This document shows, piece after piece, positions 28,833-44,548 of a DNA stretch of 64,000 nt (positions are counted from its first letter, which is position 1; every line of letters starts with the position of its first letter). The notes under the pieces are model-generated. The model was not told the origin of the DNA and did not search any database. It worked only from the letters and a program-made list of their open reading frames with translations. The translations under genes were made by a program, and so were the position numbers. The stretch is from Bacillota bacterium (GTDB taxonomy: Bacteria; Bacillota; Clostridia; Christensenellales; SZUA-584): NCBI GenBank assembly GCA_023391105.1, contig JAEWBO010000023.1, forward strand, positions 19,640 through 83,639. Direction: 5' to 3'.

Positions 28833-28877
28833 GTTTCCTCCTTGAAGAAGTTTGAATGAAAGTAATATGTTTAGTTT

Positions 28878-28907
28878 ATTATACCACATACTTCCTAAAC
28901 TTTTCAA
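28878..28907 (-). promoter_or_regulatory. promoter of the TM-TIR operon
   Basis: On the minus strand, TTGAAA-18 nt-TATAAT with an extended TGg element, about 45 nt upstream of the ATG. Confidence 0.55.
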
Positions 28908-28972
28908 CATATTCTAACACCATATCCATTATTATGATATAATGTGAGCGATATTTTGTTGGAGGATAGAAA

Positions 28973-29038
28973 ATGGCGTGCCACGTTTTAAGCGTTGCCC
29001 AAAACGATTCAAAATGTTGTTCGTGTGAGTGCCGTTAA
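28973..29038 (+). CDS. candidate 21-aa Cys-rich small ORF (MACHVLSVAQNDSKCCSCECR)
   Basis: A GGAGG RBS sits 7 nt before the ATG. An extended -10 TGaTATAAT lies at 28935-28943. The ORF is divergent from the TM-TIR operon and below the ORF-track size cut-off. Confidence 0.35.
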   Translation: MACHVLSVAQNDSKCCSCECR

Positions 29039-29156
29039 TCCATAATATATCATATATTGCCTCCATATTTAAGAAAGGCAACATATGCCAATAAATTTCT
29101 ATTGTTAAAAAACCAGCGTTCCATAATGTTTTATTTGATGTGTAATAGTAGGCTCA

Positions 29157-29174
29157 TCTAACACTTTTCTAACA
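29157..29174 (+). repeat. TCTAACAC-TTTTCTAACA (candidate arm-type sites, right arm)
   Basis: Near-identical to 17641-17659 in the same orientation, about 150 nt inside attR. Confidence 0.5.
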
Positions 29175-29324
29175 TTTTCTCGTTTTCCGTCCAAAATTGA
29201 AACTTCTGCTCTATAGGCTTTCTTTAATTAATTTCTCTTTATACCCCGATTTTACTTGTGCATTCAAGGCTTTTTCCACTAATAGATAAAAGCCTTTGGA
29301 TACTATTAAAAGATAGCCCCCGTC

Positions 29325-29370
29325 AATGGGGTTCAAGAGGCCGGAGGTTCGAATCCTCTCACCCAGACCA
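29325..29370 (+). repeat. attR (displaced 3' tRNA-Pro fragment)
   Basis: AATGGGGTTCAAGAGGCCGGAGGTTCGAATCCTCTCACCCAGACCA. The two differences from attL are a compensatory pair in the T stem. Confidence 0.85.
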
Positions 29371-29810
29371 CGTCGAAATGGACTACGCTTCGTTCGCTTT
29401 TCGGACGAAGCGTTTCTCTTTATCCGTCCGAAAAGCTCACACGCTCCGTCATTGCTCCTTTTCCACAAAAAGCCGCGTTCGCATCGGCTAAGCGCTTGCA
29501 AGCGCGCGCTTTGACGCCGATTTGCTCACTACCACCTTTTTTGCGGTTGCCGCCTTCGGCGGCGATTGAACCCAAATGTGGGATCCGTTTTCATCTCAGT
29601 CTTTTTCTTTTTCTCATGCAACCCCAAATTTGGCCACCTCTAATTAAACTACTAATGGATTTATACAACTTCTTATTTGCTTAGTATGAGAGCAGGAGAT
29701 AACATATATATCTCGAATATGTTATACTAAATCACAATAAAAAAATGGATATAACACTTGCGGTGTTTCTCCGCACATTCTAACTTCAATATAAAAGGAG
29801 ATAAATTTAT

Positions 29811-31295
29811 ATGATCAATATCCCTGAAGTCAAAATGGGCATTGTGGCCGTCAGCCGTGACTGCTTCCCGATTGATCTGTCCATCGAGAGACGCAAAGCT
29901 GTCATTGAGGCCTGCCAGAGAAAGAACATTTCAATTATCGAAATTGAAACGACGATTGAAAATGAGCATGATACGATGCGTGCGCTTGAAGAGCTGAAGG
30001 AAAAGGGTGTCAACGCGCTTGTTGTGTTTCTTGGTAACTTCGGCCCAGAAGGCCCCGAAACTATGCTGGCGCAGGAGTTTAATGGGCCGTCGATGTTTTG
30101 TGCGGCTGCCGAAGAAAATATCGAGGTGCTCTCGAGCCGCCGCGGAGACGCATACTGCGGCATGCTTAATGCCAGCTATAATTTGAAATTACGCAAGGTC
30201 AACGCATACATACCCGAAAAACCAGTCGGGACGGCTGAGCAAATCGCAGACTTGATTCAAGAGTTCCTGCCGATCTCACGCGCCATTATTGGCGTCAAGG
30301 GTCTCAAAATCATAACATTCGGTCCGCGCCCGTTTGATTTTCTCGCATGCAACGCGCCGATTGCGCCGCTGTTCAAAATCGGTGTCAATGTGCAGGAAAA
30401 TTCCGAGCTTGATCTGTTTGCGGCCTTTAACAAGCTCAAGGATGATCCGCGTATTCCCGCTGTCGTTGCGGATATGGAAAAGGAGCTCAAAGAGGGCAAC
30501 TGCATGCCTGGCATACTGCCCAAACTGGCACAGTTTGAGATCACGCTTCTTGACTGGATAGCCGAAAACAGGGGCGCAGCCAAATATGTCGCGCTGGCCA
30601 ATAAGTGCTGGCCCGCTTTCCAAACGCAGTTCGGGTTCGTGCCGTGCTATGTAAATTCACGCCTGACAGCCAGAGGCATTCCTGTCGCTTGCGAAGTGGA
30701 TATCTACGGCGCACTCAGCGAGTATATCGGCACATGCGTCACAGGTGCACCTGTGACCCTGCTTGATATCAACAACACGGTGCCTGCCGATATGTATGAA
30801 CAGTCAATTAAAGGCAAGCTTGGCTATGGCGACAATGAGGTGTTCATGGGTTTCCATTGTGGTAACACCCCAATCTGCCGCTTGAAGAAAGGTACAATGA
30901 AATATCAGTTGATTATGCACAGAGGACTTGAGCCGGACAAAGAGCCCGATATCACGCGCGGCACGCTCGAAGGCGATATCGCCCCCGATAAGATCACGTT
31001 TTTCCGTCTGCAGGGCAACATCGAATCGCAACTTCAAAGCTATATTGCGGACGGCGAAGTCCTTCCTGTGGACACGCAGTCGTTTGGTGGCATCGGTGTG
31101 TTCGGCATTCCCGAAATGGAACGCTTTTATCGCCACGTATTGATTGAGGACGGCTATCCGCATCACGGTGCTGTGGCATTCGGCAACGTGGGACGACAAA
31201 TATTTGAAGTGATGAAGTCACTCGGCGTTGGGAAGATATCGTTCAACAGACCCAAGGGAAATGACTATCCCACAGAGAATCCATTTATGAAGTAA
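29811..31295 (+). CDS. L-fucose/L-arabinose isomerase-family protein
   Basis: 494 aa with an AAAGGAG RBS. The N-terminal MGIVAVSRDCFP...LVVFLGNFGPE and overall length fit the COG2407-type sugar isomerases. Confidence 0.6.
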   Translation: MINIPEVKMGIVAVSRDCFPIDLSIERRKAVIEACQRKNISIIEIETTIENEHDTMRALEELKEKGVNALVVFLGNFGPEGPETMLAQEFNGPSMFCAAAEENIEVLSSRRGDAYCGMLNASYNLKLRKVNAYIPEKPVGTAEQIADLIQEFLPISRAIIGVKGLKIITFGPRPFDFLACNAPIAPLFKIGVNVQENSELDLFAAFNKLKDDPRIPAVVADMEKELKEGNCMPGILPKLAQFEITLLDWIAENRGAAKYVALANKCWPAFQTQFGFVPCYVNSRLTARGIPVACEVDIYGALSEYIGTCVTGAPVTLLDINNTVPADMYEQSIKGKLGYGDNEVFMGFHCGNTPICRLKKGTMKYQLIMHRGLEPDKEPDITRGTLEGDIAPDKITFFRLQGNIESQLQSYIADGEVLPVDTQSFGGIGVFGIPEMERFYRHVLIEDGYPHHGAVAFGNVGRQIFEVMKSLGVGKISFNRPKGNDYPTENPFMK

Positions 31296-31655: not shown

Positions 31656-32669
31656 ATGAATCATGAGATATACAAGAGTATACTAAGCTCTTTATATAGC
31701 CATATTGGTATTATTCTTCAGACCCAGATTCAGGATAACGAAGGAGAAAGTACGGCTATCCGTAAACGGCTGTTGGATGCGAATGATCCGCAAGCTGTCA
31801 CCGCATATCAAAACGGTTGTCCGGCTATGGTACGATCAGACAACATATCGACAGTATGGGAGCCGTACTTTCCTGAAGAACGGCTGATTGTGCTGGGAGG
31901 CGGTCATATTGCACTGCCGTTGGTCGATTTCGCATCGAAGACAGGGTTTTCTGTTGTCATCGCCGATGACCGCCCGAGCTTTGCCAACACGCTCCGTTTC
32001 CCCTCTGCGCAATCTGTGCTTTGTGAGAGCTTTGAAAAGGTGTTTGAAAGCCTTCAGGTGACAGCGAGCGACTATGTGGTCATCATCACGCGTGGCCATC
32101 GTTATGATATGCTTTGTATGGAAAAGCTGCTGCAAGGAACCGAGCCGCACTATACGGGCATGATCGGCTCACGCAGGCGCGTGAATGCGTTAAAGGACGC
32201 GATGATTGAACAAGGACATGACAAATATCGTATTAACCGGGTGCATACACCCATTGGTCTGCCTATCGGCGCTGTCACACCGGCGGAAATCGCTGTATCG
32301 ATATTATCAGAGCTTATTGCATGCAAACGTCTCGGTTCCAAGGGTCATGGCCGCCGCGGCGATATTGATATGCAGGTGCTGCGCACATTGGCTGAGGAAA
32401 AGGATGTTCCCAAAGCTGTCGTGACGGTTATCGCTGCGAAGGGCTCGGTACCGCGTGGCCCGGGCGCAAAAATGCTGGTGTATGCCGATCGGCGTATCGT
32501 CGGCAGTGTTGGCGGCGGCTGCAGCGAATCCGAGGTGATTCGCCTCGCACAGCAGCTCATCGGCACAGGCAGATATCTGCTGCACACCGTTGATTTAACT
32601 GCAGAGATTGCGGAAGAGGAAGGCATGGTTTGTGGCGGCGTCATGCAGGTTCTAATCGAAGATTACTAA
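31656..32669 (+). CDS. XdhC-family accessory protein (apparently permuted domain order)
   Basis: The Rossmann part LIVLGGGHIALPLVDFASKTGFSVVIADDRP...ITRGHRYD comes first. The XdhC_CoxI-type motif AAKGSVPRGPGAKMLV...GSVGGGCSESEV follows at the C-terminus. Confidence 0.65.
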   Translation: MNHEIYKSILSSLYSHIGIILQTQIQDNEGESTAIRKRLLDANDPQAVTAYQNGCPAMVRSDNISTVWEPYFPEERLIVLGGGHIALPLVDFASKTGFSVVIADDRPSFANTLRFPSAQSVLCESFEKVFESLQVTASDYVVIITRGHRYDMLCMEKLLQGTEPHYTGMIGSRRRVNALKDAMIEQGHDKYRINRVHTPIGLPIGAVTPAEIAVSILSELIACKRLGSKGHGRRGDIDMQVLRTLAEEKDVPKAVVTVIAAKGSVPRGPGAKMLVYADRRIVGSVGGGCSESEVIRLAQQLIGTGRYLLHTVDLTAEIAEEEGMVCGGVMQVLIEDY

Positions 32670-32694
32670 TCCTGATATTTTTATGTATTTGAAA

Positions 32695-32726
32695 ACAGGC
32701 AGCCGGTGTAGAGAATAACTGCCTGT
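32695..32726. terminator. hairpin terminator closing the long minus-strand operon (also downstream of xdhC)
   Basis: ACAGGCAG-16 nt-CTGCCTGT. On the minus strand it is followed by TTTTC. Confidence 0.55.
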
Positions 32727-32793
32727 CATTTAATCAGAATACCTAAATATGAGTGCCTTTATGTGTTGCCTCTAAGATCGTCCTCAAAGCTTG

Positions 32794-33414
32794 TTAAATA
32801 AAATATTCAATCGTACGTCCTGGCGTCTGCCTCGTATTCTCGTTAAACAGCAGCACCGCTTCGCGAATATCAATTGGCCCAAGTGTATAGGCACCCTTTT
32901 CTTCTTTGTTGAGTATATCGAAAGACACTTTACGGTTCATCTTAGCGGGGGCATCTAAAACCATTTCAATGCCCGGAATTTTAAAAGCCTTTTTTCGAAA
33001 GTACGGGTCAAACATACAGATAGAATTTTGGCTCACACCTGTAAACAGCACATAATGCCAGCAGCCATAGTTGAGCCGTACCACCGCAACCCCTCCCTGC
33101 TGCAGCCCAGCCACAAGCCTGCTGTTTTGGCTCACAAAAACATCAGATCCCGTAAGGAACTCACCGCGTATCGGAAAGTGTTTTACCTTTCCAAACTGAT
33201 TGAGCCAGTTACAAAGAAACATCATGGCCATGCCTGATGTACCGCTTTTGCCAAACTCACCCTTCTCGTTGTAGGCGTCTAGGCTGAAAAGGACAATATG
33301 CTTAATCACATCTGGCGGTATCTCTTCGCGATTGAAAAGATAGCTGATTGCATTTGTTAAAGTGGTGGGACCGCAATCGAACTCGGACGCCTGATAGCTC
33401 AATGGAATTTTCAT
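32794..33414 (-). CDS. papain-fold (C39-like) cysteine peptidase domain protein
   Basis: The motifs Q..EFDCGPTTL (nucleophile Cys), CWHYVLFTG (His) and MFDPY (Asp) appear in the order expected for C39-like peptidases. Confidence 0.5.
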   Translation of the reverse strand: MKIPLSYQASEFDCGPTTLTNAISYLFNREEIPPDVIKHIVLFSLDAYNEKGEFGKSGTSGMAMMFLCNWLNQFGKVKHFPIRGEFLTGSDVFVSQNSRLVAGLQQGGVAVVRLNYGCWHYVLFTGVSQNSICMFDPYFRKKAFKIPGIEMVLDAPAKMNRKVSFDILNKEEKGAYTLGPIDIREAVLLFNENTRQTPGRTIEYFI

Positions 33415-34544
33415 TCTATCTCCTCGTCTTCAGCAATCATCAGTGAAGCAGCCAGTCTTGCACTTTGAATCAGTTCACCCATCGTCGTGTACTCCTCGCA
33501 TGTGTGGCACCCATGCATGCCCGACGCTATAACCAGACCGCTGATTCCGTTTTCTGCGAGATAATTGTTGTCGCTGCCGCCCATGGTTTTTACCATATTT
33601 GTTTGAAGTCCCATCACCTTGCATACGGTTACAAATCGCTTTGCCACCGGAAAATCCAACGATGTTTCATAGGCTTTGCAGCCTGTCGTGGCGTCGAATA
33701 ATAACGACGCGCCAAACGCATCCGCACTCACTGAAAACTGCTGTTTGATCGCTTCCACAAGATCAAGAGCTTTTTGATGAGATAAACTGCGCACCTCTCC
33801 GCGCACGGTGCATTGATCCGGCACAATGTTCGTTGCGCGGCCCCCGTTTATGATGCCGATATTCAACGTTGTGTTGTCATCAACATGCCCCAGCTTCATT
33901 TTGCTGACAGCTTCGGCTGCCGCTGCAATAGCATGAACACCATTCTCGGGCTCAAAGCCCGCATGAGCGGCTTTTCCCGTTATCGCAGCTGTAAAAAGCA
34001 CAATACTGGGAGCGCTGTATGCGGCTGAGCCGATGTCCCCTGACAAGTCAAGAACATATGCCTGCCTCGATTTTATTTGAGTAAAATCAAATTGAGCAGC
34101 ACCTCCGCAATATACTTCTTCTGCAATAGTGAACAATACCTCGATGGGCCGATGGCGAATTCCGTTCTTTGTAACAACGCGCAAAGCTTCCAATATCGCT
34201 GTGATACCCGATATATCATCTGCGCCGAGCACGGTATCTCCCCCGCTAGTGATGCGGCCGCTATCTGAAATTATCGCGCGTTTCCCCGCCGACGGCTCGA
34301 CGGTGTCCATATGGGCACAAAACAGCAGCGGTTCACCAAGCGTTTCTTCTCCCTTGAGATAGCCATAAAGGTTGCCGCATCCGTTTTCATGACCAGCTCC
34401 CGCCCTATCTTCCGAAATAATAAAGCCCATCTCAATAAGCTGATATTTAATGTATTCGCAAATCTTCTTTTCGCCATAAGATGGGCTGCCTATAGTCACC
34501 AGTGCGCAGAACTCATTTTTTAGCCGATCGACGTTGATATCCAT
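33411..34544 (-). CDS. M20-family metallopeptidase (peptidase T-like)
   Basis: The motifs LLFCAHMDTV, GADDISGITAILEAL and FTIAEEV are present. Length is 377 aa. Confidence 0.8.
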   Translation of the reverse strand: MDINVDRLKNEFCALVTIGSPSYGEKKICEYIKYQLIEMGFIISEDRAGAGHENGCGNLYGYLKGEETLGEPLLFCAHMDTVEPSAGKRAIISDSGRITSGGDTVLGADDISGITAILEALRVVTKNGIRHRPIEVLFTIAEEVYCGGAAQFDFTQIKSRQAYVLDLSGDIGSAAYSAPSIVLFTAAITGKAAHAGFEPENGVHAIAAAAEAVSKMKLGHVDDNTTLNIGIINGGRATNIVPDQCTVRGEVRSLSHQKALDLVEAIKQQFSVSADAFGASLLFDATTGCKAYETSLDFPVAKRFVTVCKVMGLQTNMVKTMGGSDNNYLAENGISGLVIASGMHGCHTCEEYTTMGELIQSARLAASLMIAEDEEIE

Positions 34545-34564
34545 ACCGTCTCCAATGTCATTAT

Positions 34565-35257
34565 TTATTTCATATATTTTACCTTACTTCCCAGCCAGAT
34601 GTATAGCTTTCTCTGTTCAGGCAGCATGTCATTTTGATTGTCATGGAAAGTTTGATAAAGCAGGTTAAGATCGTCAAAATGGTCAACGTCGATTTCTTCC
34701 GAAATCATGGAAATGGTATGCCCCGAGTTTTCAAGCTGAGTAAACAGCTGTTTTAACGTACTCTCACAGCTATATTCCACACGGCTCCATATGGTTCTTT
34801 GAATTCGAATATTGGAGCCAAACAGGTAAAACCCACCGTCCGCGCTTGGCCCAATCACGCAGTTGTCAGGCTTAGAAGATAGCTTGTCAACGGTCTCCAG
34901 AATCACTGAAGGCTTGAGCTGCGGGCTGTCTGTCCCAATGAGTATCACTTGCCTATATCGGCTGAACAGCTCTTCAGATATATTGGCGAGGCTTTCCCCC
35001 AGCCCATTTTCTCCGGTCCATAACACCGGAAACAATTTTGTGTTTTTCTGTTCGACAGCTTGCTTTTCAGGCATCGCCCAAAATAGATCAATGGTGCTCC
35101 CAGAAAGCTCTTTGGCTGTCAGCGCGATTTCTTCGACTGCATCAACACTCATACGATAGAACGTCTGCGCGTTTGTCTGCCCAAAATCCACTGCCAGCCT
35201 TGTTTTGACCGGAGATAGCCCCGGAATCTTGGCAAAAATGGCCAATGCTGTTTTCAT
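34565..35257 (-). CDS. DUF2064/TIGR04282-type transferase (rSAM/selenodomain-associated, arsenosugar-type)
   Basis: MKTALAIFAKIPGLSPVKTRLA at the N-terminus and the later ILIGTDSPQL. It is adjacent to the partner genes of that cluster type. Confidence 0.7.
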   Translation of the reverse strand: MKTALAIFAKIPGLSPVKTRLAVDFGQTNAQTFYRMSVDAVEEIALTAKELSGSTIDLFWAMPEKQAVEQKNTKLFPVLWTGENGLGESLANISEELFSRYRQVILIGTDSPQLKPSVILETVDKLSSKPDNCVIGPSADGGFYLFGSNIRIQRTIWSRVEYSCESTLKQLFTQLENSGHTISMISEEIDVDHFDDLNLLYQTFHDNQNDMLPEQRKLYIWLGSKVKYMK

Positions 35258-36045
35258 GATTCGAACCGATAGACGACACCGTTATCAAAAGCAACCGGCT
35301 TGGCATTTTGAATAAACTTAATAATCGCTTTACTAAATACAAGCTTGCTTTGCTTCAGATTCGCATTGAGCTCTTCCAAGGATGTCGGAACCGCAGCTAC
35401 CCCATTCGCATAATCGCTGCCAAAACCAATCAGTTGGTATGGAATTTCAAGTTCACCCGATAATACGATCTCAGGCCCGGCCGTCTGGCTGACTGCGGAT
35501 ACGCCATATTGCGCGAGCGCCGCTATCTCCGCTCTGGAATTAAAACGCGGACCGTTCACATGGCCGTATACTGCCCGATTATAGTATTCAAGGCCAAGGC
35601 TTTGAATACTGTCGATGACAAGTTCACGTAAACTGCCCGAAAAAGGCTGGTTAAAAATCAGATGTCCTCTGTCCTTCTCGCCGATACGATGAAATATTGT
35701 GCACAGTTCACCGTTTGGCAGCCTGTTCTCAGGAAAAAACAAATCGTCGAATACAAAAAGCTTCGCCAGTGAAAACTCAGGCTGTACCACTCCGGCCACA
35801 GTCGTGGCGAGTATCGCAGAAACCCCAAGGCGGCTCAAGGCGGCAATGTTGGCCCGATGATTGATCTGATGCGGGAGTATTTGGTGCCCTTTCCCATGAC
35901 GGTTAACAAAGTACACCTCAGCTGCCTCGATATGACCCGCTAAAACAGATACTTCGCCAAAGTCAGTTGCGACGATGATCTCATGCTGATCTTCAAGCTC
36001 TTGAAAATCATAAAAGAAAGAGCCGCTAATAATCCCGAATTTCAT
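35254..36045 (-). CDS. MTAP-family purine nucleoside phosphorylase-like protein
   Basis: FVNRHGKGHQILPHQINHRANIAAL and the length of 263 aa fit this family. The gene overlaps both neighbours. Confidence 0.7.
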   Translation of the reverse strand: MKFGIISGSFFYDFQELEDQHEIIVATDFGEVSVLAGHIEAAEVYFVNRHGKGHQILPHQINHRANIAALSRLGVSAILATTVAGVVQPEFSLAKLFVFDDLFFPENRLPNGELCTIFHRIGEKDRGHLIFNQPFSGSLRELVIDSIQSLGLEYYNRAVYGHVNGPRFNSRAEIAALAQYGVSAVSQTAGPEIVLSGELEIPYQLIGFGSDYANGVAAVPTSLEELNANLKQSKLVFSKAIIKFIQNAKPVAFDNGVVYRFES

Positions 36046-36715
36046 GCATATTCCTCCGATTATTCTTTTTATCCTGCTTTGCCTGCTTGCGCCAAAGAGT
36101 CAGATGTTTCACCGTTGTTCTGAGCCACCCATTCTCCTCGTATTTTCTGGCACTCGTCAGAATCTTCATCCCAATTGGCTTTATGCGTACACGATGCCTT
36201 CTGTAGTCTCTGATAAGCAGGTGATCCTCGCCGTATTCCGCTTCTTCTGAAAAGCCAGACAGCTTTTTGAAAAGCTCCTCTTTAATAAGAAAAGCCTGAT
36301 CTCCAAACGGCGTTTTTAAAAATCGGCAGCGAAACCACACACCGATTTCATTAAGCCGCATCAAACGGCAACCCTGTGAAAAAAACTTTAAATCAAAATA
36401 ATACAACGCCGCTTTATCTTGTTTCATCGTTCGCTGCAGTGTATCTGCCGTCATATCGAGCAGTATGGAATCAGCGTGTAAAAACCACAGGTACTCACCA
36501 TCCACGTGCTGTGCACCAGTATTGAGGCAGCGTGCCCTTCCTGTTTGCGATTGTATCCATTGCGCTCTGCTTTCAAGCGCCGCGCTAATGAATGTCCTAT
36601 TAGGCGAACACAAAAGTATCTCCCACTCAGCCGGAAAGTCCGTCAGCTGCTTTTCCAACAACTCATTGAATCGTTCTCCTGGTGCCAAGGGGATGATTAC
36701 GCTCAGCTTTTTCAT
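36026..36715 (-). CDS. GT2-like glycosyltransferase (TIGR04283-type, rSAM/selenodomain-associated)
   Basis: [14 protein letters not shown] and LWFLHADS follow the GT-A DxD-like pattern, in the matching cluster context. Confidence 0.65.
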
Positions 36716-38190
36716 TGCTTCACAATGCGCCGGAATAAAGCCAGCGGGTTCTTCTTCTGCGGAAGAGCTTTGCCGCCGCCTTGCGGCAAAAACTCATAGA
36801 GATTGCTGTTTATAATCTCGTCGGTTATACGCGCCGCTTCTATCACATAGTTCTCGCACGTGATTTTATGCTCCGCCGAATTCCATTTCACGTTTTTGGT
36901 CAGCACACGGCAGCATATCGCCTTCGTTTTTTCCTTAAACCGCTTATGCAGCTCGTTAACCGCCAAATACACCATTCTCTCAGACTCGTAGGTTTTGTTT
37001 CGTCCCGCAATCAAACCAAGCGCCATCACAGCGCCTGTCACAGCACCGCAGGCACAGCCGGATTCCCCCAAACCCGAACCAAATCCCGTCGCGATTTTGT
37101 AGTTGCTTTCCTCCAGACCCAATCGATACACCTCGTTAAAAGCGCGAAGAACAGCCTCGCTGCAATACAAGCCATTACGAAAATACCTTAAGGACAGGGC
37201 CACAGCAGGCGAGAATTCTGAATTATCGTCCTCTTGCACAGTGCGTTTTATGTTATCCTTTTCGGAGTCAAAATCATCAAACAGCCACGTGCTTAAATAC
37301 CGTTCTCCCGAATCAGGAAACACCGTCAATATCCGTTTGCCTTCGTATTCTGGCCTCTTGGCGACCTGAAGTGCCGCCCACATCGCCGCAGCCGATGAGA
37401 TACCGACGAGCAGCCCTTCCTTTTTGGAGAGCTCTCTTGCGATCTCTCCGGCATCTTCGTCTTTTACCGTGATGATTTCGTCGATTATGCTCTGATCAAG
37501 CACCGATGGAATAAACCCGGCACCGATGCCCTGCAGTTTGTGAGGTGCCGCAATGCCGCCGGATAATACCGCAGACTTAAAAGGCTCCACCGCAATGACT
37601 TTTATATTCGGATTATGTTTTTTGAGCACCTGCCCGACCCCGGTCAGCGTACCGCCTGTGCCGACCCCTGCCACAAAAACATCAATGCTGCCGTCGGTAT
37701 CTCTTAAAATCTCCTGAGCAGTCGTTTGTCTGTGCATCTCGGGATTGCTCAAATTGGCGAACTGCTGCAGAATATATGCGTTTGGTATTGTCTGCGCAAG
37801 TTCATTTGCTTTTTCCACAGCGCCATCCATGCCGTCGTACGCTTCCGTCAGAACAACTTCCGCACCCAGCACATGGAGTATCTTTCTTCTTTCAATGCTC
37901 ATGGTCTCAGGCATTGTGAGTATCAGCTTATAACCTTTTATGGCGCTAACGAAGGCAAGGCCGATGCCGGTGTTGCCGCTTGTGGGTTCAAGCAGCACAT
38001 CACCGGGCTTTATAATACCTTCCCTTTCCGCGCTTTCGATCATTGAGAACCCAATTCGGTCTTTCACGCTGGAAAGCGGATTGAACATTTCAAGCTTGGC
38101 AATGATCTCGGCTTGCGTCGGGTTTATTTTCGTAATTCTGACCAGAGGGGTATTCCCAATCAGTTGTGTCAAATCTTCCGCTATTTTCAT
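36712..38190 (-). CDS. cysK: cysteine synthase (CysK-like PLP enzyme) fused to a C_GCAxxG_C_C domain
   Basis: The N-terminal ~300 aa carry GNTPLV...[10 protein letters not shown]...[10 protein letters not shown] and [10 protein letters not shown]. The C-terminal ~150 aa carry [11 protein letters not shown]...[16 protein letters not shown]...CCRVL. Confidence 0.75.
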
Positions 38191-38219
38191 AATAGGTCTC
38201 CCGCTATTGATTCTTAAAG

Positions 38220-39203
38220 TTATACCAAGGTGCCTTTACAAGAGCTTCCGCTGCCTGCCACACACGCAAAGCAATGCTGACCAAAGGCAATCCGGTCGGT
38301 AATCTCGGCAAAATCGTTGATTTTCCAGACCGAATTTTCATTTGAGCATATCGGCTTATTGAGAGCAATATTAAAATCACAATCAAATAATCGTCCGTCG
38401 TAATCAACAGATATCTGACTCTTACACATCACCTTATCAGCCGCCTCGTGATTAAAGGCGGCGCAAAGAAGACTGTTGTAACGGCTGAGCTTTTTGTCGT
38501 GCGTGAGCATATGCTCATATCTGCCTATAGGCATGTTTGAAATTGTGTAAAGATTATTAAAAACAATGCCATATCGGTCTTCCAGCGCTTCTTTGTAATC
38601 CGCTTGCAGCTTCGTCTGGTCTCCCGGCAAATAATCATCAAGAGGATTGTAAACTAAATGCAGCTTAAGACCACTGCCCTCTTTGCCATACCCTAATGCG
38701 TTCAGTTTTACCAGGGCTTCAATGCTTTTTGTATAGACATCGGTTCCTCTTTGCAGGTCGACATTATCTTGTGTATAACAGGGAAGCGATGCACATACCG
38801 TGACGCCGTTCTCAGCCAAAATATTTGCCGTGTCTTCTTGGCCCGCTTCGAGCAGTATCGTTAAATTACAGCGGTCAACGATTTCGAGTTCCAGTTCTTT
38901 AAGACGCCTGACCAAATACTTAAAATTCGGGTTCAGCTCCGGGGCACCGCCGGTTAAGTCCACCGTCTTTATATTCTGATTGTTTGCAAGCAAATCAATA
39001 ATGCGGTTGATAATCAACGCCGGCATTTCTTCTTTTATGTCCGGCCCGGCATTCACGTGGCAATGTCGGCATCTTTGATTACACTTTTTTGTGATATTAA
39101 GCTGCAATGTGTCTATCGATTTACGGGTTTGGCTCACCTCATGCTTCGCCAGTGTATCTTCAAAGCTGCATGTTTGCAGCAGTAGCTCTCCCAATTCAAT
39201 CAC
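38220..39203 (-). CDS. arsS: radical SAM/Cys-rich protein of the ArsS type (TIGR04167-like), Cys form
   Basis: [16 protein letters not shown] carries the CxxxCxxC motif. The C-terminal Cys-rich tail is [15 protein letters not shown]. There is no in-frame TGA. Confidence 0.7.
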
Positions 39204-39958
39204 CCCTGTTTCGTCGTCCCTGTATTGTCTAAAGCGGGCGCTGCGCTGTCCAAAATCTCTGCGCTTTGAGCGCTTTCTGCTTTGGCTTTGCGTTGTTTAT
39301 ATATTGAGCGCAAGATGGATGTCAGACCGAACAGAGCAAACACGATGAGCAGACCGTATACAAAAGTTTTTGCTCCTCCGCCCAGCATTTTTCCCGCATA
39401 AGAATAGACGATTGTAGCAGGCAGCTGGCCTATACCGGTCGCGATAAAAAACGGCCAGAATTTGATAGACGTGAGCCCTGCCGCATAGCTCACAATATCA
39501 AAAGGCATAAATGGCAGCAGCCTTGCAATCACGATGGATTTAGAACCGTACTTTTCGAAAAAGCCGTCTACTGAAGCCAGTGCACTTTTTCCTGTCAGCT
39601 TTGTGACCGCTCTTCTTCCGTAAAGCTTCGCAATGCCAAAGCACGCGGCTGCACCGACCATTGAACTCGTCCATGAGAGCACGGCCCCGCCAACCCATCC
39701 GAATATGGCTGCATTCGCAAAGGTGATGAGAAAAGCGGGCAATGGCGCGGCCAGTGATTGAAAAACCATTAAGGCAAACGATATAACAATGGCCAGCACG
39801 CCAAAAGAACGTATATATTCTTTGACCGGCTCAGGATCGGCAGACGACAGCACTTTGGCAAACTCAATAATGGCAGATCTGCTATCCGGGACTAAAAAAA
39901 CCGCCAGCAAAACGGCAGGGATTGCAATCATGATACCGATTTTTAATTTTCTATTCAT
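39200..39958 (-). CDS. TVP38/TMEM64 (DedA-related) membrane protein
   Basis: The family core is FQSLAAPLPAFLITFANAAIFGWVGGAVLSW. There are about 5 TM helices. Confidence 0.7.
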   Translation of the reverse strand: MNRKLKIGIMIAIPAVLLAVFLVPDSRSAIIEFAKVLSSADPEPVKEYIRSFGVLAIVISFALMVFQSLAAPLPAFLITFANAAIFGWVGGAVLSWTSSMVGAAACFGIAKLYGRRAVTKLTGKSALASVDGFFEKYGSKSIVIARLLPFMPFDIVSYAAGLTSIKFWPFFIATGIGQLPATIVYSYAGKMLGGGAKTFVYGLLIVFALFGLTSILRSIYKQRKAKAESAQSAEILDSAAPALDNTGTTKQG

Positions 39959-40011
39959 CTTCTATATCTCCATTCAATGTACCGATTAAGGTATAATTGA
40001 TATATTTCAAG

Positions 40012-40977
40012 CTAACTCAGCAAGGTTTCACTCTCCGCGATTTTTACGCTCTTTTTACCCTTGTTAATAAACAGCCACTGAATACCCCCCACCAGACTGT
40101 ATGCGGATACAGCTATCGCAAACAGCACAGAAACGGTCAATGCAGCTGATGCTGTGAACCCATATGGCTGAAGCAGGAATATATAGGCGCCTTCTCTCAT
40201 GCCGTATCCGTTTACGCCAACCGGCACCATCGCAAGTACAGAAGACGCGCATGTGATTAAAAACAGATCCGGCAAAGGCGGCAGCGGTTGGTTTAGGCCC
40301 GCGATCACAGCCCCCACAACAAAGGCGACAACCGTTTGAAACAACACAGATTCAATCAGGCATATCCCAAGGGCCTTCTTTTTGCTTCTCAGTTCTTTTG
40401 CCGATCCGGCAAACCGGGCCCAGCCGCGGCTGAATTTTCCGTCTCTCTTTCTCAGCTGTTTCGGCACCCAGCCCGACATTAAAACGGCTGCGAGCAGCAG
40501 CCCCGCCAGCAGCAGCCCGGCGAGCAATACCACTGCGATTCTCGAAGGGCTTTTAGAAAAAGCCGAACTAACCAGCCCGAGCAATGCAAGGGTAATGGTG
40601 GCGATCACTCTTTCCATCACCACCGAGGAAGCCGCCGCCGAGGTGTTCTCAGCTTCTTTACCCGCAAGGTATATACGGATGCCGTCTCCGCCGATGCTGG
40701 ATGGCAAAAAGTTGTTAAAGAAAAGGCCGCAGTTGTAATAAGCTATCAGCCTGCCAAAGCTGATGCTGATTCCCTGTGCTTTGATTAAGGCCCCCCATTT
40801 AAGGGCACTGATCAGCACAGAAAGCAGTATCAACATAAAAACCGGGAGCAGCCATACAAGATTGAAATGGGTCAGCGACTTTGCCACCTGATCAATATCC
40901 GCGAGCGTAACAGCCAACGCCAACAGCCCCAGGGAAATGACGATCCGCAATACCGTCCAAACTTTCTTCTTGCTCAT
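40012..40977 (-). CDS. LPG-synthase-TM / UPF0104 flippase-like membrane protein
   Basis: The motif FFNNFLPSSIGGDGIR is present, with about 8 TM helices. The start is trimmed to the ATG at 40977 behind a GGGAG RBS. Confidence 0.7.
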   Translation of the reverse strand: MSKKKVWTVLRIVISLGLLALAVTLADIDQVAKSLTHFNLVWLLPVFMLILLSVLISALKWGALIKAQGISISFGRLIAYYNCGLFFNNFLPSSIGGDGIRIYLAGKEAENTSAAASSVVMERVIATITLALLGLVSSAFSKSPSRIAVVLLAGLLLAGLLLAAVLMSGWVPKQLRKRDGKFSRGWARFAGSAKELRSKKKALGICLIESVLFQTVVAFVVGAVIAGLNQPLPPLPDLFLITCASSVLAMVPVGVNGYGMREGAYIFLLQPYGFTASAALTVSVLFAIAVSAYSLVGGIQWLFINKGKKSVKIAESETLLS

Positions 40978-41005
40978 TTTGACTGCTCCCAATTTAAAGT
41001 TAATG

Positions 41006-42115
41006 TTAGTACACTATCAATTCATCAAGAATTGTGCTGTCGATTTCCTGACCGGTTCCGACCCAGCCGCTGAAGCTCACGTTATAATTGCGCACCTTTG
41101 TAAACCCGGCGGCTTGCAGTATGATAGCAGCGAAACCAGAACGTATACCGCCCGTGCAATAAGTAATGATTTCATCATCAGCTGTGTAGCCTAGCGCTTC
41201 CACTCTCGCTCTGATCTGAGCAGGTGTCAGCAGCGTTCCATCAGCATTATAAAAATCTTTAAACCAGATGTGTTTGGAACTCGGAATGCGGCCATTTGTC
41301 TTCTCACCATAATTCTTAAGGCCTGCATATTCCGCATCTTCTCTCGTATCCAGCAGCTTCAAGGTGTCCAGATTCGCTGCAAGATAATCCGTTTCGGCAA
41401 TGAGATTCTCATTGGGACTGGCTTTGGGCCCTGTGACCGTTGTGATTTTTGTGGCTTCCGTGGAAACTTCACCACCGGCATCCTGCCACGCTTTGATGCC
41501 GCCATTGAGAATAAACGTGTTTGTCAAACCAAAAACACGGAAGGTCCAAAGCTGACGGCCTTCTTCGCCTCGGCCCGCCTGTGTATCGGTGTAAATCACG
41601 ACCGGCTTTGTACCGTCGATTCCCAAATCACCGAATATCTTGGAAAGCTCATCATACGATTTGATATGCGCCCAATCGCCGCTCGCCTGATCGACGCTCA
41701 CGTTAGACCATTCCTGCCATGTGGCACGAACCGCATTCGGTAAGTGGCCCTTATCGTAAGCTTCCTGTGCGCGGGCATCCAGCACGATCACATTGTCGTA
41801 TTCTTTCTGAAGCTTTTCCACCGAGTATACATAAGAATCAAAGAGTTCCTGATCGCTGTCTTTTTCTGTGACATCAGTCGGGGCAGGAAGAACCTCGGAA
41901 TTGTTGTCTCCCGTTCTGATGGTTCTTGTTGTTTCGGCAGGCGATGCCGATTCGGTCTCAGTTGCTGTTTCGCTGGCCGAAGCCGATTCCGTTACAGCTG
42001 CCGTTTCAGTGGCTGATTCCGTGATTTGCGACGCAACAGGCGCTGCGCACGCTGCAAAAGTGGAAGCCACAAGCACAAATACCAATAACAAAGCGACTAT
42101 TTTTAAATTTTTCAT
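41006..42115 (-). CDS. tandem-rhodanese sulfurtransferase lipoprotein
   Basis: Lipobox TFAAC and an acidic Thr/Glu/Ala/Ser low-complexity linker. The active-site loop is YCTGGIRSG in the second rhodanese domain. Confidence 0.8.
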   Translation of the reverse strand: MKNLKIVALLLVFVLVASTFAACAAPVASQITESATETAAVTESASASETATETESASPAETTRTIRTGDNNSEVLPAPTDVTEKDSDQELFDSYVYSVEKLQKEYDNVIVLDARAQEAYDKGHLPNAVRATWQEWSNVSVDQASGDWAHIKSYDELSKIFGDLGIDGTKPVVIYTDTQAGRGEEGRQLWTFRVFGLTNTFILNGGIKAWQDAGGEVSTEATKITTVTGPKASPNENLIAETDYLAANLDTLKLLDTREDAEYAGLKNYGEKTNGRIPSSKHIWFKDFYNADGTLLTPAQIRARVEALGYTADDEIITYCTGGIRSGFAAIILQAAGFTKVRNYNVSFSGWVGTGQEIDSTILDELIVY

Positions 42116-42159
42116 TTTGAATTCTCCTTTTAATTTTCTTTGTTTGCTTTATTAATTTT

Positions 42160-42237
42160 TCAGGTATTTATGCTTCGACATCGACACGTCAAAATGGCTG
42201 CACTTGCAGAGAATGAGGTGTCTAGAATGTGTCTCAT
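42160..42237 (-). CDS. candidate 25-aa leader ORF (MRHILDTSFSASAAILTCRCRSINT)
   Basis: A GAAAGGAGA RBS sits 7 nt before the ATG. The ORF lies in the 5' region of the rhodanese-arsS operon. Confidence 0.3.
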   Translation of the reverse strand: MRHILDTSFSASAAILTCRCRSINT

Positions 42238-42402
42238 ATGAAAATCTCCTTTCGCTTCCGACTGAAAACCTTATTCATATATGTTTTGTATGAAATAGAT
42301 GGTAACACATACCCTTTCTTACGTCAATCATTATTTTATATCTTTCCTATATTTTTTATATGTATTAGAGTCTGCAATGATGATTCTTTTCAGATTAGAA
42401 TT

Positions 42403-42433
42403 AAAAAAGGACTGCTCTTTTTTTGAACAGCCC
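42403..42433 (-). terminator. rho-independent terminator after hgcB
   Basis: The minus-strand RNA reads GGGCUGUUC-AAAAAAA-GAGCAGUCC (9 bp including two G-U pairs) followed by UUUUUU. Confidence 0.7.
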
Positions 42434-42517
42434 AAAGTCATATCACTTGGAAGTAAAAAATATTATTCCTTAACACTCTTTTTCGTTTTTGCTTATACAA
42501 TACTGCCGTTGATAATT

Positions 42518-42811
42518 TCAGCTGCAGCAGGATTGCCCATCTCCGCCGCACGTTGGTTCTCTACCTGTAAAAAAGCTTCTGAGAATGGCTGCTGCACAGC
42601 CGACTCCGGCATGAACCTCCACAGCTGCAAATGAGCAGTTCTGCATACACGCCCCGCACTCCATGCACCTGTCTTTATAAGCAATCCGGGCTTTGCCTTT
42701 CTCCATTTCAAATACCCCATGCGGGCACACATCTGTACACATCCCGCATCCCGTGCATTTGTTTTCATCGAGCGTCAGTGTTGTCACGTTTTTTAAATAA
42801 TGGTGTCTCAT
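42518..42811 (-). CDS. hgcB: mercury-methylation ferredoxin HgcB
   Basis: 97 aa with two CxxCxxCxxxC clusters (CTGCGMCTDVCP and CMECGACMQNC). The conserved GVGCAA segment and a C-terminal vicinal CC are present. It lies directly downstream of hgcA. Confidence 0.85.
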   Translation of the reverse strand: MRHHYLKNVTTLTLDENKCTGCGMCTDVCPHGVFEMEKGKARIAYKDRCMECGACMQNCSFAAVEVHAGVGCAAAILRSFFTGREPTCGGDGQSCCS

Positions 42812-42825
42812 TGTTTTCCCTCCCG

Positions 42826-44037
42826 TCAGGCTGCCAGCGTTAAAATATCGTTGGCGATTAATGCGAGTATCCCCAGCCCGCCTGCAATGACCATAGCGGG
42901 TAAACCTGCTCTCATTTCCTTATTAACGCCGGACGGGCTTGTGTATGTGCTGCTGCCCGTAAAATTCATGGCGATGAAGGCCGAAATAGATGGCACGATC
43001 AACACATACGCCGCCGCCTTGAGCCAGCCGTAACTGGGCATTCCCGGCAGACCGTTCAGGAAACCCACACCGATTGCCCACAGCAGGCCGAGCAGGAACC
43101 CTTTGAACGCAAAGGCCCTTCCCGGTATCCACGGCAACAGCAAAGGCACAATAACACAGGCGATCAATATCGCACCCAGGTACGTATATAGGTCAATAAG
43201 ATTGAAGTGCCCGAAGCCAATGACATTAAGTATAAAGAACACACCAAATACGATGATCGTGGGTTTGACAGCCGCCACCAGTTCAATGGGGGCCAGCACC
43301 AGCCTGTCTTTTGCAGTGAAGTTGACCTGTCTCATCTTTTCCGTCGCCTGCATTCCGTTCGCAAGAAACGCCTTAATGTCCTGCGCGCGCACAGGCCCGT
43401 AGATGACTCTGAAGCCCGATCCTTTTTTCACGATATGCGCACTCACTCCCGTGGCGCCAAGCTGCGGCACGATGAGCGTGCGATGTGTGACGATGCTGTT
43501 AAGCTTTGTTTCGGCAATCCTATGGATCAGCTCTTGCGTTCCGAAAGTCCCTTTACCCGCTGCGCACCAAACATTGACGCCTTTGGTATCGAGTACAAGC
43601 ACCCAAGCGTTCAGACCGTCCAGCTGCTCACGCTCGCGGTCAAACGTGATCTTTTTGTTGGCTGTGACGAGTACCGGGGAATCCGCATTCGGTGTGCCCA
43701 CGCAATACAGCCTGGGAGCAACTGTGTAGTCCATGCGCGATGACGACCATCGAGCCTTCCAAGAGCCCAGCTTGTCTGCCCATTCCAGCTTTGTGGATAC
43801 CTGTGGAATCTTTCCCGCCGGTGTGTTGACATAGCCGCTTATCCAATGCTCAGCATGGCAGCCGCAGGAAGACGTTTCCCCGCCGCAGTTGCATTCGGAT
43901 TTCTCGGCAGCGGCCTCTGAGCCGCATGTACAAGGCCGCGCTTCCTGACATTTCGGTTCTAAATCTATCTTAATGCTATCTTGCATGTCATTTGTGTTTT
44001 CCGTCTTTCCTGCGCAGCTTTCTTCTTGATTTGCCAT
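42826..44037 (-). CDS. hgcA: mercury-methylation corrinoid protein HgcA
   Basis: The diagnostic cap-helix motif GVNVWCAAGKGTFGT is present (Cys158, codon 43564-43566). A C-terminal domain of about 5 TM helices follows. Confidence 0.9.
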   Translation of the reverse strand: MANQEESCAGKTENTNDMQDSIKIDLEPKCQEARPCTCGSEAAAEKSECNCGGETSSCGCHAEHWISGYVNTPAGKIPQVSTKLEWADKLGSWKARWSSSRMDYTVAPRLYCVGTPNADSPVLVTANKKITFDREREQLDGLNAWVLVLDTKGVNVWCAAGKGTFGTQELIHRIAETKLNSIVTHRTLIVPQLGATGVSAHIVKKGSGFRVIYGPVRAQDIKAFLANGMQATEKMRQVNFTAKDRLVLAPIELVAAVKPTIIVFGVFFILNVIGFGHFNLIDLYTYLGAILIACVIVPLLLPWIPGRAFAFKGFLLGLLWAIGVGFLNGLPGMPSYGWLKAAAYVLIVPSISAFIAMNFTGSSTYTSPSGVNKEMRAGLPAMVIAGGLGILALIANDILTLAA

Positions 44038-44060
44038 TTAAGATTCCTCCGATCATAGCA

Positions 44061-44531
44061 TCACTGACACTTATTGCTCGCAGCGCCGTTGCAGCTGCCT
44101 TCGATGTCGATAGCGCCGCATAACAGCTCGAGACTTTCAACCACCATCTCACGTTTTTCCGGAGGTATATCTGACAGGATTTTTTCGAAGTACACCGCCA
44201 TTTCTTCTTCGACTACCGCGTAAAGCTTTTTCCCCTCGCTGGTGAGGCAAATTCGTATGTATCTGCGGTCGTTCTCATCTGCTTCCCGCCGCGCCAGCTT
44301 TCCCTTCACCAGCTTATCAACTGTACGGCTCATTGTGCTCGTATCCAAATCGAGCATTGCCGCCAGTTCTATAAGCGAAAGGCTTTCCGCCCGGCCGATT
44401 TCCACCAGTGCGTGGCACTGGGCTAAGCTCGCCAATCCACAGCAGGAAAAGCGGTTCTGATCCAATATGCCTAATTTTCTTTCCAGATGCCGTATGGACT
44501 CTTGCAGTCTGGCTGAATTACTTGTATTCAT
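44061..44531 (-). CDS. MarR-family regulator with extra Cys motifs, first gene of the hgcAB operon
   Basis: The winged HTH is LIELAAMLDLDTSTMSRTVDKLVKGKLARREADENDRRY. Cys motifs are SCCGLASLAQCH and the C-terminal C..C...C. The start is trimmed to 44531 behind a GGAGGAG RBS, 23 nt upstream of hgcA. Confidence 0.8.
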   Translation of the reverse strand: MNTSNSARLQESIRHLERKLGILDQNRFSCCGLASLAQCHALVEIGRAESLSLIELAAMLDLDTSTMSRTVDKLVKGKLARREADENDRRYIRICLTSEGKKLYAVVEEEMAVYFEKILSDIPPEKREMVVESLELLCGAIDIEGSCNGAASNKCQ

Positions 44532-44548
44532 TCGTATACTCCTCCAGC

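Follow-up and report, generated by a model that had tools for sequence, protein, structure and literature searches.

How does an ArsS-type enzyme come to lie in an operon of sulfur-handling and membrane proteins without an arsenite methyltransferase gene (arsM), and what would such an operon make? The question is raised by a 64,000-nucleotide (nt) stretch of contig JAEWBO010000023.1 (positions 19,640-83,639, forward strand) from a member of the Christensenellales, called the window here, whose numbering is used for all coordinates. On its minus strand, from 42115 to 32794, ten open reading frames (ORFs) lie head to tail, one of them for an ArsS-family enzyme of the radical S-adenosylmethionine (SAM) type. 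We suggest that the first eight form a conserved cassette for making and exporting a 5-deoxy-5-X-ribosyl conjugate, in which X could be an arsenical. We give this model as a whole, arsenical X included, a probability of roughly 0.42; the identity of X is its weakest step.

An eight-gene cassette within a ten-gene operon

In order, the genes encode a rhodanese, an LPG_synthase_TM protein (LPG_TM), a VTT/DedA-family protein, ArsS, CysK fused to a C_GCAxxG_C_C domain (CysK::CGC), a TIGR04283-type glycosyltransferase (GT), an MTAP-like phosphorylase, a DUF2064 protein of the TIGR04282 type, an M20 peptidase and a C39-like peptidase. A first-pass annotation of this DNA had described ten tightly packed or overlapping genes, and all ten ORFs are indeed present, with intergenic spacings of -20 to +53 nt (in gene order +13, +53, -4, +29, -4, -20, -4, +20 and -4 nt). 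Nine of its assignments were reproduced directly, and the C39-like peptidase was borne out at the family level only. The ten-gene operon is a tight unit here, but only eight genes, rhodanese to DUF2064, are conserved as a block in relatives.

This conserved unit spans 7.85 kb (42440..34595). By blastn, 42440..34595 is 87% identical at the DNA level in one related locus (L003), which extends to the hairpin, promoter-like site and leader described below, and 42384..34580 is 87% identical in a second (L093). The flanks of these two loci are unrelated to the window on both sides, and neither carries hgcAB, the gene pair that lies directly upstream of the operon in the window. The same eight genes are found at ArsS identities of 81% (L003 and L004) and 86% (L093), and the gene context is unchanged on contigs that match the window identically. 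The eight-gene core is, by these comparisons, a putative mobile cassette.

The two peptidase genes behave differently. Both are missing in L003, and the M20 gene is absent from L003 and L004; L093 retains the C39-like gene, and its M20 gene is reduced to a remnant of about 130 nt. In a more distant locus (L007), the pair sits among cysteine and methionine genes 7 kb from the cassette. We regard the two peptidases as probable add-ons from a cysteine-scavenging neighbourhood, not as cassette members.

At ArsS identities of 55-61% (L005, L007, L090, L091 and L094-L097), the order is small ORF, rhodanese, LPG_TM, VTT, ArsS, CysK::CGC, GT and DUF2064. The MTAP-like gene is missing from these loci, and an APH-fold kinase stands beside the cassette instead. 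This kinase is the S-methyl-5-thioribose kinase MtnK (TIGR01767 score 314 against a cutoff of 275), and it replaces the MTAP-like gene in L005, L007, L009, L090, L091 and L097. The alternation of MTAP-like enzyme and MtnK is the best single clue to the chemistry, and it suggests that the pathway runs via a 5-substituted ribose-1-phosphate. Gottschalkia acidurici 9a carries a looser version with two rhodaneses, two VTT proteins, a Fer4/CCG protein, ArsS, GT, DUF2064 and an APH-fold kinase resembling MtnK of L007.

Given that the order is the same in 11 lineages, the sulfur and membrane partners pointed out in the first-pass annotation are conserved, interleaved cassette members and not chance neighbours. 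Its core of ArsS, MTAP-like enzyme and two transferases likewise recurs across loci. The wider association that it had put forward for checking, of TIGR04167, TIGR04282 and TIGR04283 with cysK, rhodanese and UPF0104 genes, recurs in the cassettes of anaerobes and was absent from all 80 loci sampled in other phyla. In the literature searched, which yielded only lists and reviews, we found no description of a rhodanese/flippase-like/C_GCAxxG_C_C cassette, of MTAP/MtnK alternation or of a variable radical SAM partner. The individual families are already known and named by NCBI, and the cassette would be new in kind only if its product were not an arsenical.

Boundaries and leader of the operon

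The upstream edge of the conserved cassette is marked by a terminator-like hairpin downstream of hgcB (42409..42433, minus strand; GGGCTGTTC-A7-GAGCAGTCC, then T6). It is the top-scoring terminator-like site within 32.4-44.8 kb and is also kept in L003, where the upstream hgcAB is absent. A sigma-70-type promoter-like site follows (42299..42327, minus strand), with TTGACG, a 17-nt spacer and a TG-extended TACCAT; it is conserved with L003 (ATTGAC...TGTGTTACCAT). At the other end, between the operon and a convergent XdhC-like gene, lies a hairpin followed by UUUU (32694..32727, minus strand) with a Delta G of -17.2 kcal/mol (z = -3.3; 2 of 200 shuffles were equally stable). It is likely the operon terminator and possibly works in both directions. 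We propose that the ten genes, together with the promoter-like site, a small ORF led by a ribosome binding site (RBS) and the terminator hairpin, form a single transcription unit.

This small ORF accounts for the one coordinate of the first-pass annotation that had to be changed. The ATG at 42237, taken there as the start of the operon, lies in another frame than the rhodanese gene (start at 42115) and opens a separate ORF of 25 codons (42160..42237, minus strand; MRHILDTSFSASAAILTCRCRSINT), with the strong RBS AAAGGAGA in front, 44 nt ahead of the rhodanese start. Seven other loci (L003, L093, L005, L007, L091, L094 and L095) have homologues of 20-33 codons ahead of their rhodanese genes, with two C-terminal types, ..TCRCRSIN(T/A) and ..LELEYSIRC(RR..). 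L003 and L093 share one kind of end (..AAIFTCRCRSINA in L093), L005, L094 and L095 end in ..TLELEYSIRC, and L007 and L091 carry ..TLELEYSIRCRR.. The differences between the L005 and L007 ORFs are partly synonymous, at third-codon positions. No small ORF was found ahead of the more distant, second-tier cassettes considered below. The 25-codon ORF may encode a cysteine-containing leader peptide that acts in a cysteine-dependent manner, or a small cysteine-bearing protein, possibly the product of an eleventh gene. A riboswitch or T-box in the leader of about 180 nt was considered and rejected, with no Rfam match (best E 0.48) and a fold z score of -0.82 against shuffles.

Two plus-strand genes converge on the operon, a stand-alone XdhC/CoxI-type maturation factor (31656-32669) and a protein with a fucose-isomerase C-terminal domain (29811-31295). 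No molybdenum hydroxylase gene is visible near the XdhC/CoxI-type factor.

The cassette proteins

All genes of the operon are on the minus strand. The rhodanese (41006..42115; two PF00581 stretches) is predicted to be an extracytoplasmic lipoprotein, with the signal MKNLKIVALLLVFVLVASTFAAC, a TFAAC lipobox (…VASTFAAC) and a T/E/S-rich tether or linker. In the first domain Asp replaces the catalytic Cys, so that this domain should be inactive, and in the second the active-site loop reads CTGGIRS. Tandem domains and a catalytic Cys in a six-residue loop are the hallmarks of thiosulfate/3-mercaptopyruvate-type enzymes, and both are present here; all equivalog models scored below cutoff. The loop is CX4R(S), the sulfurtransferase type, and not CX5R, which led us to reject an arsenate reductase of the Acr2/Cdc25 type.

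Two membrane proteins follow. The first (40012..40992; PF03706, 153.7 bits; TIGR00374, 68 against 43.2) is a polytopic, MprF-type flippase-like protein with several hydrophobic segments and without the synthase domain (bifunctional MprF model NF033480, 32.8 against 600). The second (39200..39958) belongs to the VTT/DedA family (PF09335, 90.5 bits) and scores 40.8 and 23.4 bits with UptA models whose cutoffs are 250 and 300.

Downstream of ArsS, CysK::CGC (36712..38190) combines an O-acetylserine sulfhydrylase (TIGR01139, 454.4 against 350.95) with a four-cysteine domain (PF09719, 104 bits). The lysine for pyridoxal phosphate (SVKDR) and the TSGNTG substrate loop are intact. The C-terminal domain (36715-37203) is predicted to adopt an all-alpha fold (pLDDT 93.8), for which Foldseek returned no PDB relative (best E 0.5, TM <=0.33) and a sequence search was likewise empty. 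NCBIfam models exist for the consecutively numbered Desulfovibrio genes DVU_1555, a C_GCAxxG_C_C protein, and DVU_1556, an ArsM-like methyltransferase.

The GT (36026..36715) is of the GT2/GT-A type, and its sole NCBIfam match is TIGR04283, below cutoff (166.9 against 182). The MTAP-like nucleoside phosphorylase (35254..36045) matches PF01048 (PNP_UDP_1; 74.2 bits, above cutoff) and scores below cutoff with TIGR01694 (154.9 against 274.85); its nearest solved structures are MTAPs (1v4n, 3e-33). The DUF2064 protein (34565..35257) has a CofC/MobA-like nucleotidyltransferase fold (PF09837, 64.5 against 25.8; TIGR04282 below cutoff, 126.6 against 134) and a weak CofC match. Its only PDB match, 3cgx (1.7e-8), is a structural-genomics entry deposited as a 'putative nucleotide-diphospho-sugar transferase'.

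Appended to this core are the PepT-like M20 peptidase (33411..34544; TIGR01883, 285.9 against 274) and a papain-fold cysteine peptidase of 206 amino acids (aa; 32794..33414), for which Q8, C14, H120 and D136 are the candidate active-site residues. The 206-aa protein has no Pfam match of its own, and its single-sequence structure model is of low quality (pLDDT 36). Its family was assembled by exhaustive search (594 representatives, 68 members aligned). Among the 68, 39 match Peptidase_C39_2 (PF13529), 23 DUF3335 (PF11814) and 18 Peptidase_C39 (PF03412). Two of the candidate residues, Q8 and H120, never vary in the alignment, and the other two, C14 and D136, are kept in at least 90%. Because of these matches and residues, 'C39-like' is correct at the family level. 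The combination of radical SAM enzyme, small peptide and peptidases also suggested a system for ribosomally synthesized and post-translationally modified peptides (RiPPs), a candidate that we rejected: ArsS carries neither a SPASM nor a RiPP-recognition domain, and the conserved core does not include the peptidases.

ArsS retains the features of its family

The ArsS gene (38220..39203) encodes a protein that scores 403.5 with TIGR04167 (cutoff 300) over model positions 3-303 of 303, with the radical SAM cluster motif CX3CX2C (CNQRCRHC) and a DUF3641 domain (PF12345, 163.5 bits). C260, C275, C311, C314 and C322, the last in the motif GSSC, are invariant in a 12-sequence alignment; a selenocysteine form of the family carries GxxU (PMC13188914). 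The family is large, with at least 7989 clusters at E <= 1e-20, and the nearest named relatives among the matches listed are from metagenome-assembled genomes (MAGs) of Clostridia (Mobilitalea, Clostridiaceae and Lachnospiraceae). No solved structure was matched at the sequence level by ArsS or by the GT.

A member of this family adenosylates dimethylarsenite, DMAs(III) (PMC13598754). We compared rhodanese-linked ArsS proteins with others across 98 sequences, and the rhodanese-linked enzymes, that of the window included, keep every family-invariant residue. The window enzyme is 48% identical to ArsM-linked ArsS, which are 53% identical among themselves. Only one non-conservative position, Q263, is specific to the rhodanese-linked enzymes; it lies near the invariant C260 and is L, T or M elsewhere. 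This one position is too little to argue for a changed substrate. The sequence shows no sign of an altered ArsS reaction, although an effect of a single pocket residue may be conceivable. Residue conservation relative to ArsM-linked ArsS is what suggests that the window enzyme could adenosylate DMAs(III).

A proposed route from an adenosine adduct to an exported conjugate

The alternation of MTAP-like enzyme and MtnK, the pairing of GT and DUF2064, and the constant presence of translocator-like proteins together suggest a route that can be assayed step by step, from adenosine adduct to ribose-1-phosphate, nucleoside diphosphate (NDP) sugar, lipid and outer leaflet. In the first step, by analogy with the Synechocystis enzyme acting on dimethylarsenite, ArsS would join the SAM-derived 5'-deoxyadenosyl radical to a soft acceptor X, giving 5'-deoxy-5'-X-adenosine. 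The MTAP-like enzyme would then release adenine by phosphorolysis to leave 5-X-ribose-1-phosphate, a task that a nucleosidase and MtnK may share in the relatives in which the two genes alternate. Judging by its fold, the DUF2064 protein could turn this sugar phosphate into an NDP-sugar, from which the TIGR04283-type GT2 enzyme would place the 5-X-ribosyl group on an acceptor, for which a phosphatidylglycerol- or polyprenyl-phosphate-type membrane lipid is the likeliest candidate. The MprF-type flippase-like and VTT/DedA proteins would carry the product to the outer leaflet. Finally, the rhodanese lipoprotein could swap sulfane sulfur with the product outside, and CysK::CGC may supply, or handle the redox state of, the thiol inside. 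If X is a trivalent (methyl)arsenical, which we take as its likeliest identity, it would either be imported or come from an unlinked ArsM, and the product would be a compound of the thiolated arsenosugar-lipid type.

MprF flips phosphatidylglycerol with a modified head group, and a chemical precedent comes from arsenosugar phospholipids, in which the head group of phosphatidylglycerol carries the sugar as a riboside. A lipid acceptor, with thiol/disulfide chemistry at the membrane, is suggested by three features: the MprF-type domain, a CDP-alcohol phosphatidyltransferase in sister cassettes, and disulfide-reductase modules fused to membrane proteins. The phosphatidyltransferase (L099:2998-3603 and L100:4005-4625) occurs, with an ABC transporter, between VTT and CysK::CGC in a variant that retains rhodanese, LPG_TM, VTT and CysK::CGC. 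A 702-aa fusion in two further loci (L102:3588-5696 and L103:807-2915) joins an HdrD-like Fer4/CCG domain to LPG_synthase_TM. A lipid-type or exported product distinct from the cyanobacterial route is a reasonable reading; the first-pass annotation had proposed a compound or lipid head group other than that of this route.

Arsenic or a chalcogen as the acceptor

That X is an arsenical we consider possible, at somewhat short of even odds. It is favoured by the family membership of ArsS and by co-occurrence with ArsM, and the latter is clearest outside the Clostridia. In a sample of 80 ArsS loci from other phyla, where an ArsM-family call required at least 100 bits, the GT was near ArsS in 28 loci, DUF2064 in 24, VTT in 23, an ArsM-family gene in 18 and an MTAP-like gene in nine; rhodanese, LPG_TM or CysK was near ArsS in none. 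One locus (L087) places an ArsM (NF038099, 548.9 against 400) next to ArsS, a VTT::oxidoreductase fusion, GT and DUF2064. In another (L081), TIGR04283 and TIGR04282 proteins, both above cutoff (259.8 and 214.4), adjoin an ArsM-family gene, and a third (L015) has ArsS, ArsM and a TIGR04282::TIGR04283 fusion. Given these three loci, the link of TIGR04282 and TIGR04283 to arsenic appears real, by gene neighbourhood, outside the Clostridia. GT and DUF2064 are always paired, and they are fused in L015 and L075. A pyridine-nucleotide disulfide oxidoreductase is fused to, or encoded beside, most of the 23 VTT proteins.

Such a fusion of about 710 aa, with the redox motif GGDCLNTGCVPSK, adjoins ArsS in Proteobacteria (L013, L010, L063, L069, L070, L074, L078, L085 and L087). 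Further recurrent neighbours of ArsS in Proteobacteria are PiT, a fatty-acid hydroxylase and a metallophosphoesterase-like protein.

A second tier of cassettes was found by a metagenome scan with the LPG_TM protein, at 34-38% identity; the locus samples were of 80 and 80, drawn from longer listings. These cassettes hold rhodanese, LPG_TM, a stand-alone C_GCAxxG_C_C protein, GT, DUF2064 and VTT, and their radical SAM partner varies. It is ArsS in L111, L115, L121, L133 and L136, a BioB/PylB-like enzyme of 335-342 aa in L114, L116, L118 and L127, an Rv1681-like enzyme of about 290 aa in L107, L123 and L124, and a SPASM enzyme in L128. Two of these distant rhodanese cassettes have ArsM-family genes, inside L128 (NF008823, 253 against 263) and divergently beside L115. 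With the consecutive numbering of DVU_1555 and DVU_1556, we count this in favour of an arsenic link of the rhodanese cassette.

Several observations weigh against an arsenical route. As the first-pass annotation had noted, arsM is missing: no ArsM homologue was found in any ORF of at least 50 aa across the 64-kb window, and ArsM is absent within about 10 kb of the cassette in the 11 close cassette lineages. The window yielded no ArsR, Acr3/ArsB, ArsC or other ars or sel genes, and no ars resistance family recurs among the families neighbouring the cassette. What recurs is sulfur enzymes rather than ars genes, namely homocysteine synthase (eight loci), MetQ (five), a SufS-type desulfurase (four), a ThiF/TcdA-like protein (four), and a CymR-like Rrf2 regulator (three); PdxS (three) is a further recurrent neighbour. 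The rhodanese loop is of the sulfurtransferase and not the arsenate-reductase type. Three proteins of the window, the GT, DUF2064 and MTAP-like ones, score under their NCBIfam cutoffs, and the acceptor of the GT is not readable from its sequence, because a profile of 19 homologues matches only generic GT2 structures (DPMS, ArnC, GtrB-like and GpgS). Finally, L118 lacks ArsS, yet its GT and DUF2064 proteins score above cutoff (238.6 and 174 bits), which makes blanket 'arsenosugar' product names questionable. The names of TIGR04282 and TIGR04283 derive solely from gene association.

These points lead to the strongest of the alternatives, which is still unlikely in our view: the same pathway with sulfur or selenium as X. 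Here ArsS, or an alternative radical SAM enzyme, would form a C5'-S or C5'-Se bond, persulfide or perselenide would arrive by a relay of rhodanese, C_GCAxxG_C_C domain and CysK, and the pathway would end in either a lipid head group of the thio- or seleno-ribosyl kind or a low-molecular-weight thiol for export, serving extracytoplasmic sulfur or redox chemistry. Such an acceptor is favoured by the sulfur context, MtnK, a rhodanese of the sulfurtransferase type and radical SAM partners that can replace one another. Every close cassette lies among cysteine/methionine and sulfur-transfer genes and without ArsM; CysK keeps its catalytic residues and is fused to a four-cysteine domain; an MtnK above the equivalog cutoff replaces the MTAP-like gene; and BioB/PylB-like enzymes stand in for ArsS in some sister cassettes. 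Q263 near the invariant C260 is common to both groups of rhodanese-linked ArsS and rare elsewhere, and the upstream small ORF ends in a conserved cysteine motif. However, the ArsS is otherwise indistinguishable from ArsM-linked ArsS, and we know of no member of the family that forms C-S or C-Se bonds. The ArsM-family genes of the two sister cassettes also speak against a chalcogen, and a sulfur context does not discriminate, given the thiol dependence of arsenic biochemistry.

It could also be that there is no common pathway, and that two co-regulated gene sets are combined, one for sulfur or cysteine scavenging (rhodanese, CysK::CGC, M20 and C39-like peptidases) and one of ArsS, MTAP-like, DUF2064, GT and membrane proteins. 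We think this improbable. In a Fusobacteria MAG (L174:8830-11488), the rhodanese and CysK::CGC genes occur as a pair alone, with a fusion protein 80% identical to that of the window, which suggests that the two form a separable, horizontally transferred module. The fusion is widespread (at least 120 clusters) and stands in an unrelated context in L175, and the peptidase pair is apart from the cassette in L007 and missing in L003. But the two sets are interleaved in identical order in the 11 lineages, down to 55% ArsS identity, and travel jointly as the 7.85-kb module, and distant cassettes without CysK still pair rhodanese and stand-alone C_GCAxxG_C_C with GT and DUF2064.

The hgcAB neighbours

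Directly upstream of the operon, on the same strand, lie hgcA (42826..44037; cap-helix motif NVWCAAGKG, a CdhD-like domain and then a hydrophobic C-terminal half) and hgcB (42518..42811; ferredoxin motifs CTGCGMC and CMECGAC, C-terminal ..CCS), both recognizable by their motifs. The N-terminal extension of this HgcA is Cys-rich (..CTCGSEAAAEKSECNCGGETSSCGCH..), and the protein is here not a selenoprotein. A MarR-type regulator gene precedes hgcA and hgcB (42518-44561, minus strand), and a second MarR gene and a major facilitator superfamily (MFS) transporter gene lie further upstream (44683-46647).

The first-pass annotation had read hgcAB and the operon as one contiguous block of about 12 kb, which as a functional unit is not supported: the hairpin and the promoter-like site intervene, and the relatives at 81-86% ArsS identity are without hgcAB. 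One could still imagine that the two cooperate, with HgcAB as a corrinoid methyl donor in place of ArsM, or with the cassette handling mercury or methylmercury thiol chemistry. The adjacency is direct and stable within a species-level group, since same-length contigs carry both hgcA and ArsS clusters (at least 90% identity) in many assemblies, and hgcAB expression is linked to arsenic in P. mercurii ND132 (10.1101/2022.10.17.512643). This arsenic responsiveness is why we leave such cooperation a small residual probability. Against it, hgcAB has its own upstream MarR-type regulator gene, and some 170 further loci with ArsS or the cassette were all without hgcA. Given the terminator, the separate promoter-like site, the cassette edge conserved without hgcAB and the lack of hgcA elsewhere, the adjacency is lineage-specific, behind a terminator and probably not functional.

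A housekeeping salvage of 5'-methylthioadenosine or 5'-deoxyadenosine without a special product is the least credible of the alternatives: an MTAP-like enzyme or MtnK is present and methionine and cysteine genes are nearby, but known salvage routes need no nucleotidyltransferase, GT, pair of membrane proteins, exported rhodanese or ArsS-type enzyme, and family searches of the window showed no MtnA/B/C/D-type or dihydroxyacetone phosphate (DHAP)-shunt genes.

Other features of the window

The region 17495-29600 looks like an integrated mobile element with defence genes. It holds a tRNA gene (17495-17568), a tyrosine integrase gene (17675-18862) and genes for a Rep-like protein, an FtsK/HerA-like ATPase, an N6-methylase/restriction fusion (22874-25270) and a TIR-like protein, at a GC content of 33-43% against about 49% elsewhere. 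Towards the other end, a c-di-GMP-I riboswitch (63819-63905, minus strand; 59.4 bits, gathering threshold 35) lies upstream of a 783-aa surface protein with Listeria-Bacteroides repeats (61464-63815), and a GGDEF response regulator (60050-60985) is encoded nearby.

Implications and comparison with known systems

For anaerobes, 'arsenosugar' may be too restrictive a name, since other radical SAM enzymes and sulfur-trafficking genes also accompany these transferases; automatic annotation under it could hide other metalloid or chalcogen glycolipid chemistry. If X were sulfur or selenium, the cassette would make a new class of membrane thio- or seleno-glycolipid by a new reaction of the ArsS family. 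Experimental access should be feasible, as the cassette-bearing Gottschalkia acidurici 9a has a complete genome. For mercury research, the adjacency of hgcAB, which is not conserved, should not be taken as a functional link. The regulator is also of another kind, MarR-type here and ArsR-type as described for P. mercurii ND132.

The closest characterized relative of the proposed first step is ArsM-ArsS of Synechocystis sp. PCC 6803, for which work by Xue et al. from 2017 and 2019 is said to have found that ArsS converts DMAs(III) to 5'-deoxy-5'-dimethylarsinoyladenosine. The window ArsS is an orthologue above the TIGR04167 cutoff, with the radical SAM motif, DUF3641 and the invariant cysteines. 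Yet the window has no arsM in 64 kb, and its host is an anaerobic, Firmicute-like organism and not a cyanobacterium. The Synechocystis pathway as characterized is also without seven partners of the window enzyme, the rhodanese, LPG_TM, VTT, CysK::CGC, GT, MTAP-like and DUF2064 proteins. To our knowledge, no enzymes have been assigned to the steps after ArsS in arsenosugar or arsenosugar-phospholipid biosynthesis. In Synechocystis, arsS is co-transcribed with arsM, according to 10.1101/2022.09.23.509062, which cites Xue et al.

The loci named 'arsenosugar biosynthesis' by NCBI (Proteobacteria, Planctomycetota and others) share with the window the clustering of ArsS, GT, DUF2064, VTT and an MTAP-type phosphorylase. 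They have ArsM in 18 of 80 loci, a pyridine-nucleotide disulfide oxidoreductase and, in many cases, PiT or a fatty-acid hydroxylase, and rhodanese, LPG_TM or CysK in none of the 80; the window shows the reverse. Measured against that set, the window proteins fall below the TIGR04283 and TIGR04282 cutoffs, and the locus holds no arsenite methyltransferase. Of the translocators, MprF shares LPG_synthase_TM with the window protein, which is without the aminoacyl-phosphatidylglycerol synthase domain (32.8 against 600), and DedA/UptA proteins share the VTT domain, with the UptA equivalog scoring 40.8 against 250.

For steps 2-5 of the proposed route, the working analogy is the capping of Mycobacterium tuberculosis lipoarabinomannan with methylthioxylose, which, according to Angala et al. 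2017 as summarised in PMC11127046, is made from 5'-methylthioadenosine via a lipid-linked pentose donor. In both cases, a 5'-substituted adenosine would be turned into a lipid-linked pentose for use outside the membrane. The mycobacterial route uses a decaprenyl-phosphate donor and a GT-C enzyme, whereas the window operon, in which we identified no GT-C, adds ArsS, DUF2064, the rhodanese and the CysK fusion.

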